Shown: piece by piece, positions 25,655 to 62,740 of the stretch
Numbering within the stretch: the stretch's first letter is position 1
Layout: each line of letters opens with the position of its first letter
Program-made: the position numbers and the translations under genes
The notes under the pieces: model-generated
What the model saw: the letters and a program-made list of their open reading frames with translations, nothing else
Database searches by the model: none
Told to the model about the DNA's origin: nothing
DNA from: Malacoraja senta
Taxonomy: Eukaryota
Direction: 5' to 3'
DNA: 64,000 nucleotides
Assembly (NCBI GenBank): GCA_038087875.1
Contig: CM075987.1
Location: forward strand, 25,422,001-25,486,000

Positions 25655-26102
25655 GTTTAGTTTAGTTTAGTTTAGAGATACAGCGTGGAAACAGGCCCTT
25701 CGGCCCACCGAGTCCGCGCCGACCAACGATCCCCACACACTAACACTATCCTACTTTAAGGACAATTTTACACTTACACCAAGCCTTCTTCTTCTTTCGT
25801 GTGGCGTGCACAGCCTAAAGTTGTTGGACAACTTGTTCTATTTGATCTTCCGTTTGTGCACGTCGAGTTGATTGCATTAGTCGAAACAGGGAAGGTTGCA
25901 ATCTCCCACCCCTGCACCAAGCCAATTAACCTACAAACCTTTATGTCTTTGGAGTGTGGGAGGAAACTGAAGATCTCGGAGAAAACCCACGGAAGCCACA
26001 GGGAGAAGGTACAAACTCTGTACAGACAGCACCCGTAGTCAGGATCGAACCGGGGTCCCTGGCGCTGCAAGGCAGCAACTCTACCGCTGAGCCACCATGC
26101 CG
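25655..26102 (-). mobile_element. HE1-type V-SINE interrupted by a ribozyme-headed SINE
   Basis: Consensus resumes after the CACCAAGCC duplication. Confidence 0.88.
25786..25914 (-). mobile_element. HDV-like-ribozyme-headed short retroelement, copy with 11-nt internal deletion
   Basis: Near-identical to 31612-31749; 9-bp TSD CACCAAGCC (25777-25785, 25915-25923); (GAA)n tail. Confidence 0.85.
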
Positions 26103-31226: not shown

Positions 31227-31611
31227 CCTTTTTTTCTGGGTTCTTTTTTTTTTATGGTACCTTTATTGTCCCGGGTACCAAAGGTAAATTGAACCACATT
31301 TTTTTGCGTACAGATCAGTGCGAATATTGCCATACATACAGACAATCCCCGATTAGGATCATAAGTTTATAAGTTGCAGGAGCAGAACTAAGCCATTAAG
31401 CCCTTCAAGTCTACTCCGCCATTCAATCGTGGCGGACCAACCCTTCCCACTCAACTCCATTCTCCTGCCTTTGCCCCATAACCCCTGACAGCCGTACTAA
31501 TCTAAGCATCCCATGCGTGGAAGCCAGCGCATCCTTCCTCAGATATGGTGCCCAAAATTGTTCACAATATTACAAATGTGGCCTTACCAGAGCCTCAGCA
31601 TTACATCCCTG

Positions 31612-31749
31612 TTCTTCTTCTTTCGTGTGACGTGCACAGCCTAAAGTTGTTGGACAACTTGTTCTATTTGATCTTCCGTTTGTGCACGTCGAGTTGATTG
31701 CATTAGTCGAAACAGGGTGGACCACGTGAAGGTTGCAATCTTCCACCCC
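31612..31749 (-). mobile_element. 138-bp short retroelement with an intact HDV-like ribozyme head
   Basis: 9-bp TSD ACATCCCTG (31603-31611, 31750-31758); (GAA)n tail; three copies in the window. Confidence 0.88.
31696..31749 (-). ncRNA. Putative minimal HDV/CPEB3-like self-cleaving ribozyme
   Basis: GGGGTGG(P1) AA GATTGCA(P2) ACC(P3) TTCACGT(L3) GGT CCACCCT(P1') GT TTCG A CTAA(J4/2) TGCAATC(P2'). Confidence 0.8.
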
Positions 31750-32051
31750 ACATCCCTGCTGTTGTATACAAGCCCTCTTGATATAACTGCTCGCATTGAG
31801 TTTGCTTACCGGCCCTTGTCCAGCATCCACCGGTGTTGCCGACTCTCTCCTCTTTCTGGTTCCCGCTGCTCGGGGGTGAGCGGGAGATGATCCTCCAACA
31901 CACTCCAGGCAGAGTCCCCCCCATTCCACGGGCAGCTGCCTGTCGGGCTTTGGAAATCGCCCGCACAGCCATCTTAATACCAAAAGCTGAACATCGAAGA
32001 TACATTCCCCACCTCGTTTAACACATTACAGCTTATTACAACTTGAGTGGT

Positions 32052-39300: not shown

Positions 39301-39873
39301 GCTCCTCTACCTCCCAAGGAGCAGAAGGTGCAAAGATAATGCACACATGGTTGAGGTGGCTCCTGGGTCGGGTTGCATAAGTCCTCCCATTCGGATGTGG
39401 AAGGATGAAGCTGATTGAGGCAACTCCTGGAAGTTCCCCATCCGGCGGTGTGAAGGTATGGAGCCACATCGATGATGCCTCCTGTCACGGATACAAGTTG
39501 GTAATATTTACACTGGTTTGAATATTTTCACTGGTTTCGGATAACATGAGATTAGTTTATACTGCACAGCAGGTATGGTTGGAGTTGCCTTTCAAGGCAG
39601 GCTCGCAATTATGGGGATGTAGACTGTTCATTGTCAACAGGATCAACATGTGCAGTATAGACATTTCTGAATAACTTCCATGTGATCATTTCCGCTCACA
39701 GGCTTCGGAGATATTTGAAATTTAGCTGGATGAGGCAAGGATACACTCAGAAGTGTTGCAAAATGGGCTAACTTCAGCTCCCAGGTTATTTACCAAATCA
39801 CTACAATCAGTGCTTTGACTGCACAGAGCTAACAAACAAGGGTTATAGCCAATCAGGATGATATTGAACATCC

Positions 39874-40089
39874 TGTGGCGGCTCCCAAGGGTCGTGCCAT
39901 TATACCTGTCGAACCCCTCGGCACGGGAGTGGTTCAGTCCGGAGGCGGCCCTTAGCCAGAGGGTTTAAAGGCAGGGGTTTGGGTGCCATCTTTCTGTCGT
40001 TTGGTCTTCCCTACAGCCGGGAGGACGTAATAAAATGTGCTTCTCAAAACACTGGACTTCGTGCTTACTTTCGAGACACACGCACCACA
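39874..40089 (+). repeat. 5' LTR
   Basis: TGTGG..CCACA; contains TTTAAA and AATAAA; repeats at 41516-41731. Confidence 0.95.
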
Positions 40090-41610
40090 TTGGTGGAGGG
40101 AAGACAAAGCCCTACCTCCTCTCAGGCCGGCCCGGCCCTGTCTCTGGACGCGGTCTCGGTGAAACTGCCTACCTTCTGGACCACCCGGCCGCTTATCTGG
40201 TTCCAGCAGGCGGAGACCCAGTTCAACCTGCGGGGCATCACGGTCGATGCCACCCGCTTCTATTACCTGGTGGGGGCTCTCGACCAGGACATGGTTGAGG
40301 AGGTCACGGACTTCGAGGTGATCCGCGGACTGTCTCACCCATCAATCCGGGCGACAACGGCACTAGTGGCCGCTCGTTTCATGTGGCACGGTCTGCGCAA
40401 GCAGGTTGGCCATTGGGCTCGGACCTGCATTCCGTGCCAGACGGCGAAAATCCAGCGCCATGTCCGGGCGCCTCTCCAGGAGTTTGGTCTTCCTCACCGT
40501 CGATTCGACCGTCTCCACGTAGACATCGTAGGGCCTCTCCCGCCATCCCGGGGAATCACCCAGCTTCTCACAATGGTGGACCGCTTCACGCGGTGGCCAG
40601 AGGCCATTCCGCTGGCCGATACTTCAACGGCTACGTGTGCTCGTGCGTTGTCCGCGCACTGGATTGCTCGCTTCGGGGTGCCGGCGCACATCTCCTCAGA
40701 CCGGGGGCCACAGTTCACCTCCGAGCTGTGGTCAGCCATGGCTCGCTTGCTGGGGGTGCGGCTACACCGCACCACGGCTTACCACCCGCAAGCTAACGGT
40801 CTGGTGGAGAGGTTCCACCGGCAGCTAAAGGCAGCACTGAAGGCACGACTCTCCGGCCCGGACTGGATGGACGAGTTGCCCTGGGTCATGCTGGGCATCC
40901 GGACTGCTCCCAAAGAGGACTTGGCCTCATCATCGGCGGAGCTCGTGTACGGCTCGCCACTCACGGTGCCCGGGGAGTTCGTGCCGTCGGTGTCGGGGCA
41001 GCAGGGAACGCCCTCATCCACCCTAAAGCACCTTCTCGAGCGAGTTGGCAGGCTCGCACCCGTCCCGACGTCCCGCCATGGGACATTTCGCCCGCACGTG
41101 CCATCAGCCCTCAGGGACTGCCCATACGTCTTCCTGCGCCGTGATGCTCACCGAACGCCACTCCAGAGGCCGTACGAGGGCCCGTTCCGGGTGTTGGAAC
41201 ACGGGCAGTCGACTTTTGTACTGGACATGGGGGGCCGGCCAGAGGCCGTGTCAATTGACCGGTTAAAGCCGGCACACCTGGACATTGACCAACCAGTGCT
41301 GGTTGCCCAACCTCGGCCTCGAGGGCGCCCCCCCTCACGGCTCCCTCCGCCTGTCACTCCACCTGTCCTCCCGCCGGTCCTCCAACCTATCCCTCGACCC
41401 GCCCCTCCATCTATGCCTCTGCCAGCCCCACGATCTGCTGACTTCCGCACGCGGGCCGGCCGGGTCGTGCGCCCGCCGGTGCGTTTCGTGCCTTGGGTTC
41501 TGGGGGGGGGGGTCCTGTGGCAGCTCCCAAGGGTTGTGCCATTATACCTGTCGAACCCCTCGGCACGGGAGTGGTTCAGTCCGGAGGCGGCCCTTAGCCA
41601 GAGGGTTTAA
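39979..41610 (+). CDS. Uninterrupted Gypsy Gag(N-terminus)-integrase fusion frame; first ATG at 40291 gives a 439-aa mostly-integrase protein
   Basis: Gag motif VSVKLPTFW..WFQQAETQF..GIT..YYLVGALD; IN zinc finger (R)GLSHP..CIPCQ; D-D-E core HVDIVG/SDRG/NGLVER; GPY/F motif RPYEGPFRV. Confidence 0.85.
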   Translation: MGAIFLSFGLPYSREDVIKCASQNTGLRAYFRDTRTTLVEGRQSPTSSQAGPALSLDAVSVKLPTFWTTRPLIWFQQAETQFNLRGITVDATRFYYLVGALDQDMVEEVTDFEVIRGLSHPSIRATTALVAARFMWHGLRKQVGHWARTCIPCQTAKIQRHVRAPLQEFGLPHRRFDRLHVDIVGPLPPSRGITQLLTMVDRFTRWPEAIPLADTSTATCARALSAHWIARFGVPAHISSDRGPQFTSELWSAMARLLGVRLHRTTAYHPQANGLVERFHRQLKAALKARLSGPDWMDELPWVMLGIRTAPKEDLASSSAELVYGSPLTVPGEFVPSVSGQQGTPSSTLKHLLERVGRLAPVPTSRHGTFRPHVPSALRDCPYVFLRRDAHRTPLQRPYEGPFRVLEHGQSTFVLDMGGRPEAVSIDRLKPAHLDIDQPVLVAQPRPRGRPPSRLPPPVTPPVLPPVLQPIPRPAPPSMPLPAPRSADFRTRAGRVVRPPVRFVPWVLGGGVLWQLPRVVPLYLSNPSAREWFSPEAALSQRV

Positions 41611-51296: not shown

Positions 51297-51425
51297 GGGG
51301 TGGGAGATTGCAACCTTCACGTGGTCCACCCTGTTTCAACTAATGCTATCAACCAGACATGCACAAACAAGATTAAATAGAACAAGTTGACCTAGGCTGT
51401 GCACAACATACGCAAGAAGAAGAAG
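51297..51425 (+). mobile_element. HDV-like-ribozyme-headed short retroelement, diverged copy
   Basis: GGGGTGG GA GATTGCA ACC TTCACGT GGT CCACCCT GT TTCAA CTAA TGCTATC; (GAA)n tail; imperfect TSD TCTACC(C/T)CA. Confidence 0.82.
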
Positions 51426-58585: not shown

Positions 58586-61500
58586 ATAGAAACATAGAAA
58601 CATAGAAAATAGGTGCAGGAGTAGGCCATTCGGCCCTTTGTGCCTGCACCGCCATTCAATATGATCATGGCTGATCATCCAACTCAGTATCCCGTACCTG
58701 CCTTCTCTCCATAACCCCTGATCCCTTTAGCCACAAGGGCCACATCTAACTCCCTATTAAATATAGCCAATGAACTGGCCTCAACTACCTTCTGTGGCAG
58801 AGAGTTCCAGAGATTCACCATTCTCTGTGTGAATTTTTTTTTTCTCATCTCGGTCCTAAAAGATTTCCCCTCTATCCTTAAGCTGTGACCCCTTGTCCTG
58901 GACTTCCCCAACATGTGGAACAATCTTCCTGCATCTAACCTGTCCAACCCCTTGAGAATTTTGTAAGTTTCTATAAGATCCCCCCTCAATCTCCTAAATT
59001 CTAGCGAGTACAAGCCGAGTCTATCCAGTCTTTCTTCATATGAAAGTCCTGACATCCCAGGAATCAGTCTGGTGAACCTTCTCTGAACTCCCTCTATGGC
59101 AATAATGTCTTTCCTCAGATTTGGAGACCAAAACTGTACGCAATACTCCAGGTGTGGTATCACCAAGACCCTGTACAACTGCAGTAGAACCTCCCTGCTC
59201 CTATACACAAATCCCTTTGCTATGAATGCTAACATACCATTCGCTTTCTTCACTGCCTGCTGCACCTGCATGCCTACTTTCAATGACTGGTGTACCATGA
59301 CACCCAGGTCTCGTTGCATCTCCCCTTTTCCTAATCGGCCACCATTTAGATAATAGTCTGCTTTCCTGTTTTTGCCACCAAAGTGGATAACCTCACATTT
59401 ATCCACATTATACTGCATCTGCCATGCATTTGCCCACTCACCAAGCCTATCCAAGTCACCTTGCAGCCTCCTAGCATCCTCCTCACAGCTAACACTGCCC
59501 CCCAGCATAGTGTCATCGGCAAACTTGGAGATGTTGCATTCAATTCCCTCGTTCAAATCATTAATATATATTGTAAATAGCTTGGGTCCCAGCACTGAGC
59601 CTTGCGGTACCCCACTCGTCACTGCCTGCCATTCTGAAAAGGACCCGTTTACTCCTACTCTTTGCTTCCTGTTTGCCAGCCAGTTCTCTATCCACATCAA
59701 TACTGAACCCCCAATACCGTGTGCTTTAAGTTTGTATACTAATCTCTTATGTGGGACCTTGTCGAAAGCCTTCTGAAAGTCCAGATATAACACATCCACT
59801 GGTTCTCCCCTATCCACTCTACTAGTTACATCCTCGAAAAATTCTATAAGATTCGTCAGACATGATTTACCTTTCGTAAATCCATGCTGACTTTGTCCAA
59901 TGATTTCACCACTTTCCAAATTTGCTGCTATCCCATCTTTAATAACTGACTAGCAGTTTACCCACTACCGATGTAAGACTAACTGGTCTGTAATTCCCCG
60001 TTTTCTCTCCCCCTCCCTTTTTAAAAAGTGGTGTTACATTAGCTACCCTCCAATCCTCAGGAACTACTCCAGAATCTAAAGAGTTTTGAAAAAATATCAC
60101 TAATGCATCCACTATTTCTGGAGCTACTTCCTTAATTACTCTGGGATGCAGCCTATCTGGCCCTGGGGATTTATCGGCCTTTAATCCATTCAATTTACCT
60201 AACACCACTTACCGGCTCACCTGGATTTCACTCAGTTCCTCCATCTCCTTTGACCTGCGGTCCCCTGCTATTTCCGGCAGATTATTTATGTCTTCCTTAT
60301 TGAAGACGGAACCAAAGTACTTATTCAATTGGTCCGCCATATCCTTGTTCCCCATGATCAATTCACCTGTTTCTGACTGCAAGGGACTTACATTTGTTTT
60401 AACTAAACTCTTTCTCTTCACATATCTATAAAAACTTTTGCAGTCAGTTTTTATGTTCCCTGCCAGTTTCCTTTCATAATCTATTTTCCCTTTCCTAATT
60501 AAGCCCTTTGTCCTCCTCTGCTGGTCTCTGAATTTCTCCCAGTCCTCTGGTATGCTGCTTTTTCTGGCTAATTTGTACGCTTCATCTTTTGCTTTGATGC
60601 TATCCCTGATTTCCCTTGTTATCCACGGATGCACTACCTTCCCTGATTTATTCTTTTACCAAACTGGGATGAACAATTTTTGTAGTTCATCCATGCAGTC
60701 TTTAAATGCCTTCCATTGCATATCCACCGTCAACCCTTTAAGAATTAATCGCCAGTCAATCTTGGCCAATTCACGTCTCATACCCTCAAAGTTACCTTTC
60801 TTTAAGTTCAGCACCATTGTTTCTGAATTACCCATGTCATTCTCCATCCTAATGGAGAGCTCAACCATATTATGGTCACTCTTGCCCAAGGAGCCACGTA
60901 CAACAAGACTGTTAACTAACCCTTCCTCATTACTCAATACCCAGTCTAGAATAGCCTGCTCTCTCGTTGGTTCCTCTACATGTTGGTTTAGAAAACTATC
61001 CCGCATACATTCCAAGAAATCCTCTTCCTCAGCACCCCTGCCAATTTGATTCACCCAATCTATATGTAGATTGAAGTCACCCATTATAACTGTTTTACCT
61101 TTGTTGCACGCATTTCTAATTTCCTGTTTGATGCCATCCCCAACTTCACTACTACTGTTAGGTGGCCTGTACACAACACCCACCAGCGTTTTCTCCCCCT
61201 TAGTGTTTCGCAGCTCTACCCATATCGATTCCACATCCTCCAAGCTAATGTCCTTCCTTTCCATTGCGTTAATCTCCTCTCTAACCAGCAACGCTACCCC
61301 ACCTCCTTTTCCTTTCTGTCTATCCCTCCTGAATATTGAATATCCCTGGATGTTCAGCTCCCAGCCTTGGTCTCCCTGGAGCCATGTCTCCGTGATCCCA
61401 ACTATATCATAATCATTAATAGCTATCTGCACATTCAACTCATCCACCTTATTACGAATGCTCCTTGCATTGAGACACAAAGCCTTCAGGCTTGTTTTTA

Positions 61501-61700
61501 CAACGCTCTTACCCCTTATACAATTATGTTGAAAAGTGGCCCTTTTTGATTTTTGCCATGGATTTGTCTGCCTGCCACTTTTATATTTCACCTTGCTACC
61601 TATTGCTTTTACCCCCATTTTACACCCCTCTGTCTCTCTGCTCACCCATTTAAGAACCCCACCACCTCTTATTCTCTGTTTATTATTGTTTTCTTCTTTC
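58586..61700 (-). mobile_element. CR1 (HER1-type) LINE, 5'-truncated near the ORF2 start, inserted in a Penelope 3' fragment (58368-58585 and 61700-61820)
   Basis: (ATAGAAAC)n tail; the Penelope host sequence resumes on both sides. Confidence 0.92.
58684..61645 (-). pseudogene. CR1 ORF2 (APE endonuclease + reverse transcriptase), disabled
   Basis: NARSI/ITETWL/MGDFN/SDHN endonuclease motifs; QHGF, DFQKAFD, GVPQGSVLGP, FADD RT motifs; in-frame stops at 60656 and 60209 and a frameshift near 59945. Confidence 0.93.
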
Positions 61701-62740
61701 CCCCCTACACTCCTCCGACATCAGTCTGAAGAAGGGTCTCGACCAGAAACGTCGCCCATTCCTTCTCTCCATAGATGCTGCCTCACCCGCTGAGTCCCTC
61801 CAGCATTTTTGTCTGCCATCCTCTTCACTAATGGAGGCTCACGTTGATATCATTTCGCGATACGATTCTGCTTGCACCCATCTTCAAAGTGTCATCGATG
61901 TGAAGCAGCAAGAAATCATAGATTAAAGTGTTATGTTCCTCAATATCCCTCTCTGAACAGTTAAAGCCATGGGGTGCCAAACGAAGGAGGTAAATTTCTC
62001 TGATGTGGACATATAAACCTTTTCATAAATTGTCTCCCGATTTTAAATGCAGTAAACAGACAAAACACTGTCTCATTATCTGATGCATCAAGACCTTCCC
62101 GAGGATAATGCTTCATTCTAAACCCATTAATAGTGAGTTACGGTTATTTTAAGAAGGACATTTGCAAATTCATGAACAGTTTGTGAAAGGAAGGTTATTT
62201 GAAAGAGGCCTTTTGCGACGTACAATCAAAACAACGTTTTTATTTGGCTTTTTTAACTTTACGATTAGAGCGAGCTGTCTGTTATTTGGTTGCTGAGAGA
62301 CATTCGTCATCCTTTTATTAGTTTTTATAGCAGATTTGTATTTGTGCAATGGAACATTGTCATCAGAATGTTAAAAAAAAAAAGCCTTTGAAGTGCAAGG
62401 TATGAATAGACCCTGGAGAGGTAATTGATGAAGCAAAAGATTTGTAACGATCCGCTGGCACTGTACTGAAGGATAATATATTCCCCATTTTAACTCTATA
62501 TTTTTGTTTCAGATGAATGATAGTACTGAATGATTCTGTGGTGGCTTCAGATTTGCAGAGATTAATGGATCTGGAAGCAAAGCTAGACACGGGAAAGAAA
62601 AATTATTGGGCTGGCATTTACTGGCGGCATTGAGTTGTTACTCGACTCACCTGTTGTGAACAGGCTTGGCTTTTTTGTGGATCAACGAACAATATGTTGC
62701 TCAAAGTCACCACGATGCAAAATGGAGTGTACTCTGGGTA

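Follow-up and report, generated by a model that had tools for sequence, protein, structure and literature searches.

Ribozymes resembling that of hepatitis delta virus (HDV) are described at the 5' ends of the retroelements R2, L1Tc, RTE and baggins (PMC6765202), and non-autonomous derivatives with an HDV-like 5' ribozyme are known as well, namely the R2 SIDEs and NARTc (PMC3414825, PMC3185411). A review adds that some non-autonomous short interspersed nuclear elements (SINEs) use hammerhead or HDV-like ribozymes (PMC6765202). Ribozyme-terminated non-autonomous retroelements are a kind already known. Here we consider an element at 31612-31749, on the minus strand, of a 64,000-nucleotide stretch of DNA from Malacoraja senta (contig CM075987.1, positions 25,422,001 to 25,486,000; hereafter the window). 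It is one copy of a dispersed family, F1, whose head is predicted to fold as a minimal HDV-like ribozyme beginning at its first base, G1, and which has in the same genome a sister family, F2.

Like F1 and F2, the R2 SIDEs are non-autonomous elements of the non-LTR type (lacking long terminal repeats) with no open reading frame (ORF), and their HDV-like ribozyme sets the exact 5' end by self-cleavage of the co-transcript, a step that in F1 is predicted (PMC3414825, PMC6765202); their 3' end is used by the protein of the autonomous element (PMC6765202). R2 SIDEs are, however, site-specific in 28S rDNA and visibly derived from R2 (PMC3414825), whereas F1 and F2 are dispersed throughout the genome at unrelated sites with target-site duplications (TSDs), and the F1 ribozyme is of 54 nt against ~184 nt for R2 (PMC6765202). 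Moreover, F1 and F2, unlike the R2 SIDEs, have a (GAA)n tail, and exact-pattern searches found no parent element for them. In NARTc and L1Tc of Trypanosoma cruzi, a dispersed long interspersed nuclear element (LINE) and its truncated, non-autonomous partner share an HDV-like ribozyme in their first 77 nt, and this ribozyme, L1TcRz, frees the element from co-transcripts; the pair differs from F1 in being trypanosomatid, in that the 77 nt double as the internal promoter Pr77, and in that the autonomous partner is known (PMC3185411, PMC3383444, PMC4035085). RTE and baggins are promoter-less non-LTR elements transcribed as passengers, with HDV-like 5' processing (PMC6765202, on Ruminski et al. 2011), but they are autonomous, ORF-bearing LINEs, whereas only non-autonomous elements were found here.

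As to the ribozyme itself, HDV-like ribozymes of 56 nt that lack P4 cut themselves in vitro at k_obs values that reach >10 per min, and these minimal forms (theta, drz-Mtgn) are like the F1 head in having no P4, a length of ~55 nt, a C first in J4/2 and a double pseudoknot (10.1101/2023.06.13.544163). They have been shown to be active in vitro, whereas activity of F1 is predicted from sequence, and they come from gut bacteriophages and metagenomes, many on tRNA 3' trailers, whereas F1 is a chordate interspersed repeat; the scan of human, mouse and protist genomes for theta ribozymes that this source describes gave no eukaryotic hits (10.1101/2023.06.13.544163). The Schistosoma Sm-alpha hammerhead and twister elements are also short and non-autonomous with an embedded self-cleaving ribozyme, but the ribozyme is of another class and the hammerhead SINEs are transcribed by RNA polymerase III (pol III) (PMC8501958, PMC6765202), with a cleavage that resolves multimers rather than producing a 5' end that adjoins a TSD (PMC6765202). 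The CPEB3 ribozyme (RF00622) has the HDV-like fold in common with F1 but is mammalian, single-copy and intronic with a full P4, whereas F1 has thousands of copies. CPEB3 has the same seven nucleotides in L3, an identity that our literature look-up did not confirm, and GU after P1'. The literature searched gave no description of the F1 family or of its sequence words; Repbase and Dfam lay outside that search, as did the supplementary ribozyme lists from Webb et al. 2009 and from Ruminski et al. 2011, and these lists may include related sequences.

We hypothesise that F1 is a young, high-copy, non-autonomous non-LTR retrotransposon that cleaves itself at G1 and is spread by LINE target-primed reverse transcription, and we consider this probable. 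Its 5' module would be a 54-nt P4-less HDV-like ribozyme and its 3' module a small structured domain ending ACG(C/A)AAG(AAG)n. Copies would be carried along within longer RNAs of host or read-through origin, the ribozyme would fold co-transcriptionally and cut 5' of G1, and the released RNA would start at the first base of the element. A LINE reverse transcriptase would use the 3' domain and the GAA tail for target-primed reverse transcription, and the outcome would be full-length copies with TSDs of ~9-15 bp adjoining G1. F2 (~206 bp) would use a ribozyme that shares this core but is canonical in having P4, and it ends in the same 3' motif. Judged by its sequence and its RNA ends, F1 is a real ribozyme-terminated non-autonomous retrotransposon, for which we infer catalysis, dependence on read-through and the use of a partner enzyme.

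Layout of the element and its family

Read directly, the window holds at 31612-31749 one 138-bp unit on the minus strand, flanked by TSDs and tailed by (GAA)n (Table 1). Its first 54 nt run GGGGTGG-AA-GATTGCA-ACC-TTCACGT-GGT-CCACCCT-GTTTCGA-CTAA-TGCAATC. A first-pass annotation, made from the letters of the window, had given this minus-strand reading and the same assignment of P1, P2, P3, L3 and J4/2, which proves letter-exact, and had noted the 9-bp TSD adjoining G1 and the (GAA)n tail, both of which are present at 31603-31758. We depart from it in one respect, the P4 stub capped by UUCG: the seven nucleotides GUUUCGA between P1' and the C of J4/2 are better read as no P4, because in a stub of G-C and U-A pairs the catalytic C would be engaged, a residue which is presumed to be the first C of J4/2. 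The element body is presumed to be the recognition domain for the partner reverse transcriptase. The copy at 31612-31749 ends in ACGAAAG(AAG)n, versus ACGCAAG(AAG)n in older F1 subfamilies and in F2; the tails of NARTc and L1Tc are, unlike that of F1, of the poly(A) type.

F1 resembles a classical SINE in its small size (138 bp), its dispersal and its lack of coding sequence, and also in its TSDs and its (GAA)n tail, which is of LINE type; a pol III-derived head with A and B boxes, however, was not detected. ARAGORN gave 0 tRNA-like genes in 31500-31860, and Rfam in E-value mode gave no tRNA, 7SL or 5S match at E<=10, in keeping with the earlier statement that there are no pol III A/B boxes.

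The genome searched was an assembly of 1.94 Gb in 6,182 contigs, and the repeats flanking the element seem to resemble ones from cartilaginous fishes. The 138-bp query gave 1,557 first-look candidates, and 40 of the 40 matches scored were at 99-100% identity; at 30 of 30 fetched loci the similarity begins at GGGG, with unrelated flank directly upstream. A 31-mer of the head has 3,246 exact matches in the genome and a 25-mer of the tail 3,768 (none for either reversed-pattern control), while an internal 15-mer has 6,936 (reversed-pattern control, 4). The head and tail counts are alike, which indicates that most F1 copies are full length. For an unbiased sample we took the internal 15-mer's first 40 matches, with no selection for the head, and scored TSDs of at least 6 nt by script. 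The head is present in 37 of these 40 copies; it is missing in one, and the tail in two. The TSD ends exactly at G1 in 9 of the 40, overlaps G1 by one base in 10 and falls one base short in 2, so that its end is within +/-1 nt of G1 in 21/40 and within +/-4 nt in 27/40; in 4/40 there is a dubious repeat only, 6-15 nt off G1, and in 6/40 the script found no repeat. Neither the 40-copy sample nor the 30 fetched loci contained a set of copies extending upstream of G1. The repeat family that had been proposed from the window, dispersed, bounded by TSDs and tailed by (GAA)n, thus exists, with thousands of exact-pattern matches, and its 5' ends, neither scattered nor extended upstream, lie at G1 as predicted. 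Among some copies, for example at loci L078 and L099 (G000:C1:567710-568010; C1:5202190-5202490), the TSD runs into the first 2-4 G's, which suggests target microhomology with the GGGG start when the 5' junction is formed.

Three subfamilies can be told apart by their heads. Subfamily A is young (~99% identical) and has AA in J1/2, CCGCCCT as P1' and CTAA in J4/2; subfamily B has GA, CCACCCT and CTAA; and subfamily C, the commonest in the 40-copy sample, has GA, CCGCCCT and CGAA. Only three head positions vary, namely nt 8, an unpaired base of J1/2, nt 32, which gives either U5-A or U5.G, and nt 45, the variable letter in C-N-A-A, and the 84-nt body has about ten differing sites among subfamilies, indels included. 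On sequence, this pattern fits selection on the fold in source copies, a reading that is suggestive. F1 copies often sit inside a very abundant repeat with ...GATGCTGCCTG.CCCGCTGAGTTACTCCAGC..., found for example at 2530, 2665, 4036 and 13371 (+) of the window and 108 times in ~350 kb of fetched sequence, or ~1 per 3 kb.

Table 1. Coordinates of the F1 element, of its relatives and of other features. Positions are those of the window unless a genome (G) or locus (L) prefix is given.
Feature	Position	Strand	Details
TSD, 5' copy	31750-31758		CAGGGATGT (as read on the minus strand), 9 bp, perfect, adjoins G1
TSD, 3' copy	31603-31611		CAGGGATGT
Ribozyme head, predicted	31696-31749	-	54 nt, minimal HDV-like; G1 = 31749; order P1, J1/2, P2, P3, L3, P3', P1', 7-nt linker in P4 place, J4/2 CUAA, P2'
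P1, 5' strand	31743-31749	-	GGGGUGG; pairs with CCACCCU 31714-31720; 7 bp, opens with G1.U
P2, 5' strand	31734-31740	-	GAUUGCA; pairs with UGCAAUC 31696-31702; 7 bp, pseudoknot
P3, L3 and P3'	31721-31733	-	ACC, UUCACGU (7 nt), GGU; P3 of 3 bp
Linker, then J4/2	31703-31713	-	GUUUCGA (7 nt, no P4), then CUAA; J4/2 = 31703-31706
Element body	31627-31695	-	hairpin AAGUUGU-CCA-ACAACUU (31644-31660) within longer predicted stem
3' terminal motif	31612-31626	-	ACGAAAG(AAG)n; element ends ...ACGAAAGAAGAAGAA at 31612
Second, older family copy	51297-51425	+	head with 3 mismatches, one in P2'
Third copy	25786-25912	-	11-nt deletion inside ribozyme; GCTTGGTG repeats at the flanks
F2, example copy	G000:C13:8490724-8490944 (= L072:125-345)	-	further examples L118-L130
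Single-copy HDV-like candidate	G000:C1:320228970-320229052 (= L117:5471-5553)	-	RF00094 43.8 bits, full model, threshold 50
CR1/jockey-like LINE	58684-59949, 60656-61720	-	endonuclease and reverse-transcriptase fragments split by nested repeats
LTR-type element, ORF	39868-41610	+	integrase (rve, Integrase_H2C2)

The predicted fold and the sister family F2

Three hallmarks of HDV-like ribozymes are found in the F1 head, namely the nested double pseudoknot, the G1.U pair closing P1 and a C at position 1 of J4/2. A fourth, the P4 helix between J1/4 and J4/2, has no counterpart, and its absence places F1 in the minimal subclass; on sequence grounds, the nearest known form of the F1 head is the P4-less minimal HDV-like class. 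With <=3 mismatches allowed, the 54-mer occurs twice in the window, where 100 shuffles give an expectation of 0.00. A strict descriptor of the fold (G1.U with no more than one further wobble in P1, Watson-Crick pairing throughout a P2 of 7 bp and a P3 of 3 bp, and C-N-A-A) has its sole window match at 31749(-) and none in 126 simulated 64-kb windows. When G.U was allowed anywhere and spacings were wide, this permissive descriptor gave 107 matches in 30 simulated windows (~3.6 per 64 kb) versus one locus in the real window. The HDV topology alone is thus not rare, whereas the strict form is. Pseudoknot-free folding recovered P1 and P3 and left both strands of P2 free.

A comparison with the HDV and CPEB3 models of Rfam had been suggested in the first-pass annotation. 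In E-value mode, RF02682 (HDV-F-prausnitzii) aligns end to end (model 1-74) with 31696-31749(-) at 17.5 bits and E = 0.57, which is below gathering, and RF00622 (CPEB3) has no match to F1 at E<=10 and none to F2. The label 'CPEB3-like' was accordingly too specific, the best model being RF02682. It should be noted that the models RF02682 and RF00094 do not score P2. Evidence from the single sequence is only suggestive, and the case for the ribozyme therefore rests on the comparisons across the family, with F2 and with RNA.

A tail match of 18 nt at an unrelated locus led us to F2; the tail-like sequence in L068/L072 resembled the 3' end of a LINE but has no ORF, and it proved to be a member of F2. 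The search with F2 gave 845 first-look candidates, and 40/40 scored matches were at 92-100% identity; a 31-mer of its head has 160 exact matches in the genome. In 13 aligned copies F2 is ~206 bp long, with a 5' head, a body of ~120 nt and an end in ...CTCAAACGCAAGAAGAAGAAG, and by eye TSDs adjoin G1 in most of the 13. The head runs GGGGCTC-AT-GTTGTCG-ACC-TCCCCGT-GGT-GAGCCCT-GT-CAA-CTGAC-CTCA-GTCAG-G-CGAA-CGACAAC and has a 5-bp P4, CUGAC/GUCAG, which is the canonical HDV-like architecture. It matches RF02682 over the full model with 32.8 bits (E = 4.2e-4) and RF00094 with 25.8 bits, and the best F2 copy in the genome scores 36.7 bits on RF02682. Of the five genome-wide matches to RF02682, the best and one other are F2 copies.

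F1 and F2 have in common the tail ACGCAAGAAG(AAG)n, with the last ~19 nt alike, and, in the head, P3, an L3 of the pattern U-N-C-N-C-G-U, GGGG/CCCU at the base of P1, GU after P1' and C-G/U-A-A; beyond these we found nothing shared. Since the heads share the ribozyme core alone, no common internal promoter box is apparent, and since the likeness at the 3' end is limited to ~19 nt and the repeat, a short recognition site is suggested. J4/2 is C-U-A-A in subfamilies A and B and C-G-A-A in subfamily C and F2, so that C and AA are invariant in the alignment.

Covariation of P1 and P2, proposed earlier as a check on the fold, becomes visible once F2 is included. We aligned five distinct sequences, from the F1 subfamilies and F2 (alignment A1; 22 pairs, 90 cells), and all of the 90 cells (100%) are paired, with P3 invariant and G1.U36 invariant in F1 A/B/C and F2 (5/5 sequences). 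Between F1 and F2 seven pairs are changed on both sides (three in P1 and four in P2) and none is broken, a number of double changes reached in 0/500 shuffles. When the partner columns are slid by 1-3, there are 0-1 double-changed pairs and only 29-44% of cells are paired.

RNA 5' ends at G1

At least half of the sampled element words occur in 20 sequencing runs from 8 studies under six organism labels, none of which is recorded as RNA. For RNA we used raw reads of 'organism B', runs X22 (single-cell), X23 and X24, aligned to 31500-31860. Some ~1,400-1,900 reads per run aligned there, and nearly all run into sequence unlike the window flanks, as is expected because the element is a repeat.

Just beyond 31749, loose read ends accumulate in all three runs. 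There are 522 such reads in X22 (median loose length 31, consensus agreement 0.76), 218 in X24 (median 30, agreement 0.49) and 208 in X23 (median 62, agreement 0.45). The consensus of the loose parts starts CCCATGTACTCTGCGTTGATAC in X24; X23 agrees for the first 12 letters only, and X22 differs at 3 positions. This sequence we take to be the reverse complement of the template-switch oligo (SMART-type, used in droplet 3' libraries). No pile-up of read starts is listed at G1, and the signal lies in the loose ends that carry the adapter.

In the 522 single-cell reads of X22 the template-switch adapter is joined directly to G1, which shows that there are RNAs in vivo whose 5' end is G1. The junction has seven G, four templated and three extra, consistent with three untemplated C added at a genuine 5' end of the RNA, since strand invasion by the adapter at GGGG would give 3-4. 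Had structure made the reverse transcriptase stall, the stop should lie on the 3' side of the fold and not at the base with which the fold begins. Depth in X22 at 31734-31746 is 678 sense versus 238 antisense, the reads being single and mostly sense, and setting the 522 junction reads against the sense depth indicates that about three quarters of the X22 sense molecules end at G1.

Near the tail there are loose ends of poly(T), with 148 reads at 31621 and 78 at 31631 (X22, X23), which would come either from oligo-dT priming on the GAA-rich tail or from A-tailing of the element RNA. The RNA species captured span from G1 to the tail. Other reads cross G1 into varied flanks just beyond 31750 (377 in X23, 186 in X24 and 157 in X22), and thus read-through precursors are also present.

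Alternative explanations, consequences and candidate partners

One could suppose that G1 is a transcription start, driven by an internal pol III-like or a pol II promoter, and that the fold does not cleave but serves, for example, RNA stability or the binding of reverse transcriptase. Template-switch junctions at G1 are equally expected from a transcription start, full-length SINE copies normally begin at one, cleavage at G1 is itself a prediction, and GTTTCGAC in F1 is loosely B-box-like (7/11 positions versus the consensus). That stretch, however, is not kept in F2, whose likeness to F1 is the HDV core alone, and the searches for a tRNA-like gene and for tRNA, 7SL or 5S matches at E<=10 were negative. 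The flanks differ at every copy, so there is no shared upstream promoter, and the seven compensatory changes in P1 and P2, the invariant C-N-A-A and the P3/L3 core would go unexplained. We regard a transcription start at G1 as unlikely. It is a good deal more improbable that the F1 head is the dead relic of a ribozyme-bearing ancestor, in which loss of P4 ended catalysis so that only F2 cleaves. F1 lacks P4, it scores 17.5 bits against 32.8 for F2 on RF02682, and some minimal HDV-like ribozymes are described as very slow, drz-Mtgn-4 at 0.0022 per min, but P4-less ribozymes of this size can also be fast (10.1101/2023.06.13.544163). F1 is moreover the younger and more successful family, with thousands of copies and one subfamily at 99% identity, its head is intact across three subfamilies with fold-neutral changes only, and it is on an F1 copy that the reads of G1-terminated RNAs were aligned. 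A chance resemblance in an ordinary repeat would be in keeping with the frequency of permissive-descriptor matches (~3.6 per 64 kb of random sequence), the unremarkable energy z-scores and the lack of an Rfam match at gathering. We disfavour it as barely credible, given 0 matches of the strict descriptor in 126 simulated windows versus 1 in the real one, an independent family, F2, with the same architecture and compensated helices, and a predicted cleavage site that falls just where the DNA copies and the RNAs alike have their 5' ends.

Several observations weigh against a self-cleaving, LINE-mobilised F1 and temper our preference for it. The folding energy is no better than that of shuffles (z = -0.39 for the window F1 head and -1.05 for the whole element), and the head z-scores are also not significant for subfamily C (+0.92) and F2 (-0.76). 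Rfam gave 0 matches at gathering thresholds across the 64-kb window; F1 has 17.5 bits on RF02682 against a threshold of 44, and F2 is below gathering too (32.8 versus 44 on RF02682; 25.8 versus 50 on RF00094). The covariation, though clean, comes from two lineages only, F1 and F2, and the contrast between three neutral changes in the head and more in the body is statistically weak and suggestive. With regard to the RNA, the runs of organism B may not be from the window's species, and template switching marks a 5' end at which a 5'-OH left by cleavage and a transcription start look alike. Many RNA reads cross G1 uncleaved, and one copy seen in X23 only, with AAATTTGGTCC on both sides, belongs to an abundant transcript and is crossed equally at its 5' and 3' sides; the X23 library is unstranded, so this read-through copy may be antisense. 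Finally, searches by exact pattern, in which few candidates were scored, brought up no LINE that matches F1 or F2 in head or tail.

RTE and baggins elements with HDV-like ribozymes are mostly from invertebrates. What sets the present case apart is that SINE-like families, dispersed and of high copy number, occur in a chordate, that the minimal ribozyme form stands at the 5' end of a retroelement, that a canonical and a minimal head occur together on elements sharing one tail, and that public data give direct evidence on 5' ends in vivo. A further-reaching proposal, to which we would give not quite an even chance, is that this chordate lineage has active or very recently active promoter-less families in which the HDV-like ribozyme is the sole conserved 5' module, F1 having shrunk to a 54-nt core without P4, a form whose other reports come only from gut phages and metagenomes. 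There would then be several thousand potential self-cleaving sites, sense copies in introns or untranslated regions could cut host transcripts, and the partner enzyme would need little beyond ~19 nt and the GAA repeat.

If the head cleaves, a chordate would have in F1 a natural HDV-like ribozyme that is very small (54 nt) and of high copy number, and within one genome the canonical form with P4 and a minimal form derived from it would serve the same function. The strategy of a ribozyme in place of a promoter would be extended from R2 SIDEs and the trypanosome NARTc to dispersed SINE-like repeats, with thousands of natural variants for structure-function work, and a question that follows is in how many host transcripts a sense-oriented copy makes a cut. 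The signal at G1 in ordinary single-cell data also suggests a general screen for ribozyme-processed RNAs.

The search for a partner LINE used exact patterns in the genome. The head followed by non-F1 sequence had 0 matches and then 1, an F1 copy with a small deletion, and the tail preceded by non-F1 bases had 0. The tail ACGCAAGAAG with exclusion sets gave 17 and 17 matches, mostly F1 copies bearing deletions and no LINE, and the signature P3-L3-P3'-NNNCCCTGT with other P1' starts gave 71 and 24, all of them mutated F1 or F2 copies. BLAST of F1 and F2 against ~350 kb of fetched sequence showed no partial LINE-like match. The family that ranks top for reverse transcriptase among 159,856 first-look candidates is a young L1-type LINE (L073-L076, on G000:C9, C2, C1 and C5) with intact ORF1 (341 aa) and ORF2 (1,271 aa); as a partner it was set aside, its tails being poly(A), not GAA. 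The CR1/jockey-like LINE of the window was set aside too, with no GAA tail in the stretch read; the protein clusters nearest to its reverse-transcriptase fragment are chordate.

RF00094 has one genome-wide match, a single-copy locus (Table 1), in which P1 is GGGATGC/GCATCCT, P2 GATAGAT/ATCTATC and P3 ACC/GGT. The genome contains no second copy of this locus, and no ORF of at least 150 aa lies within 5.5 kb downstream of it; it may represent a conserved ribozyme of a gene and not a repeat.

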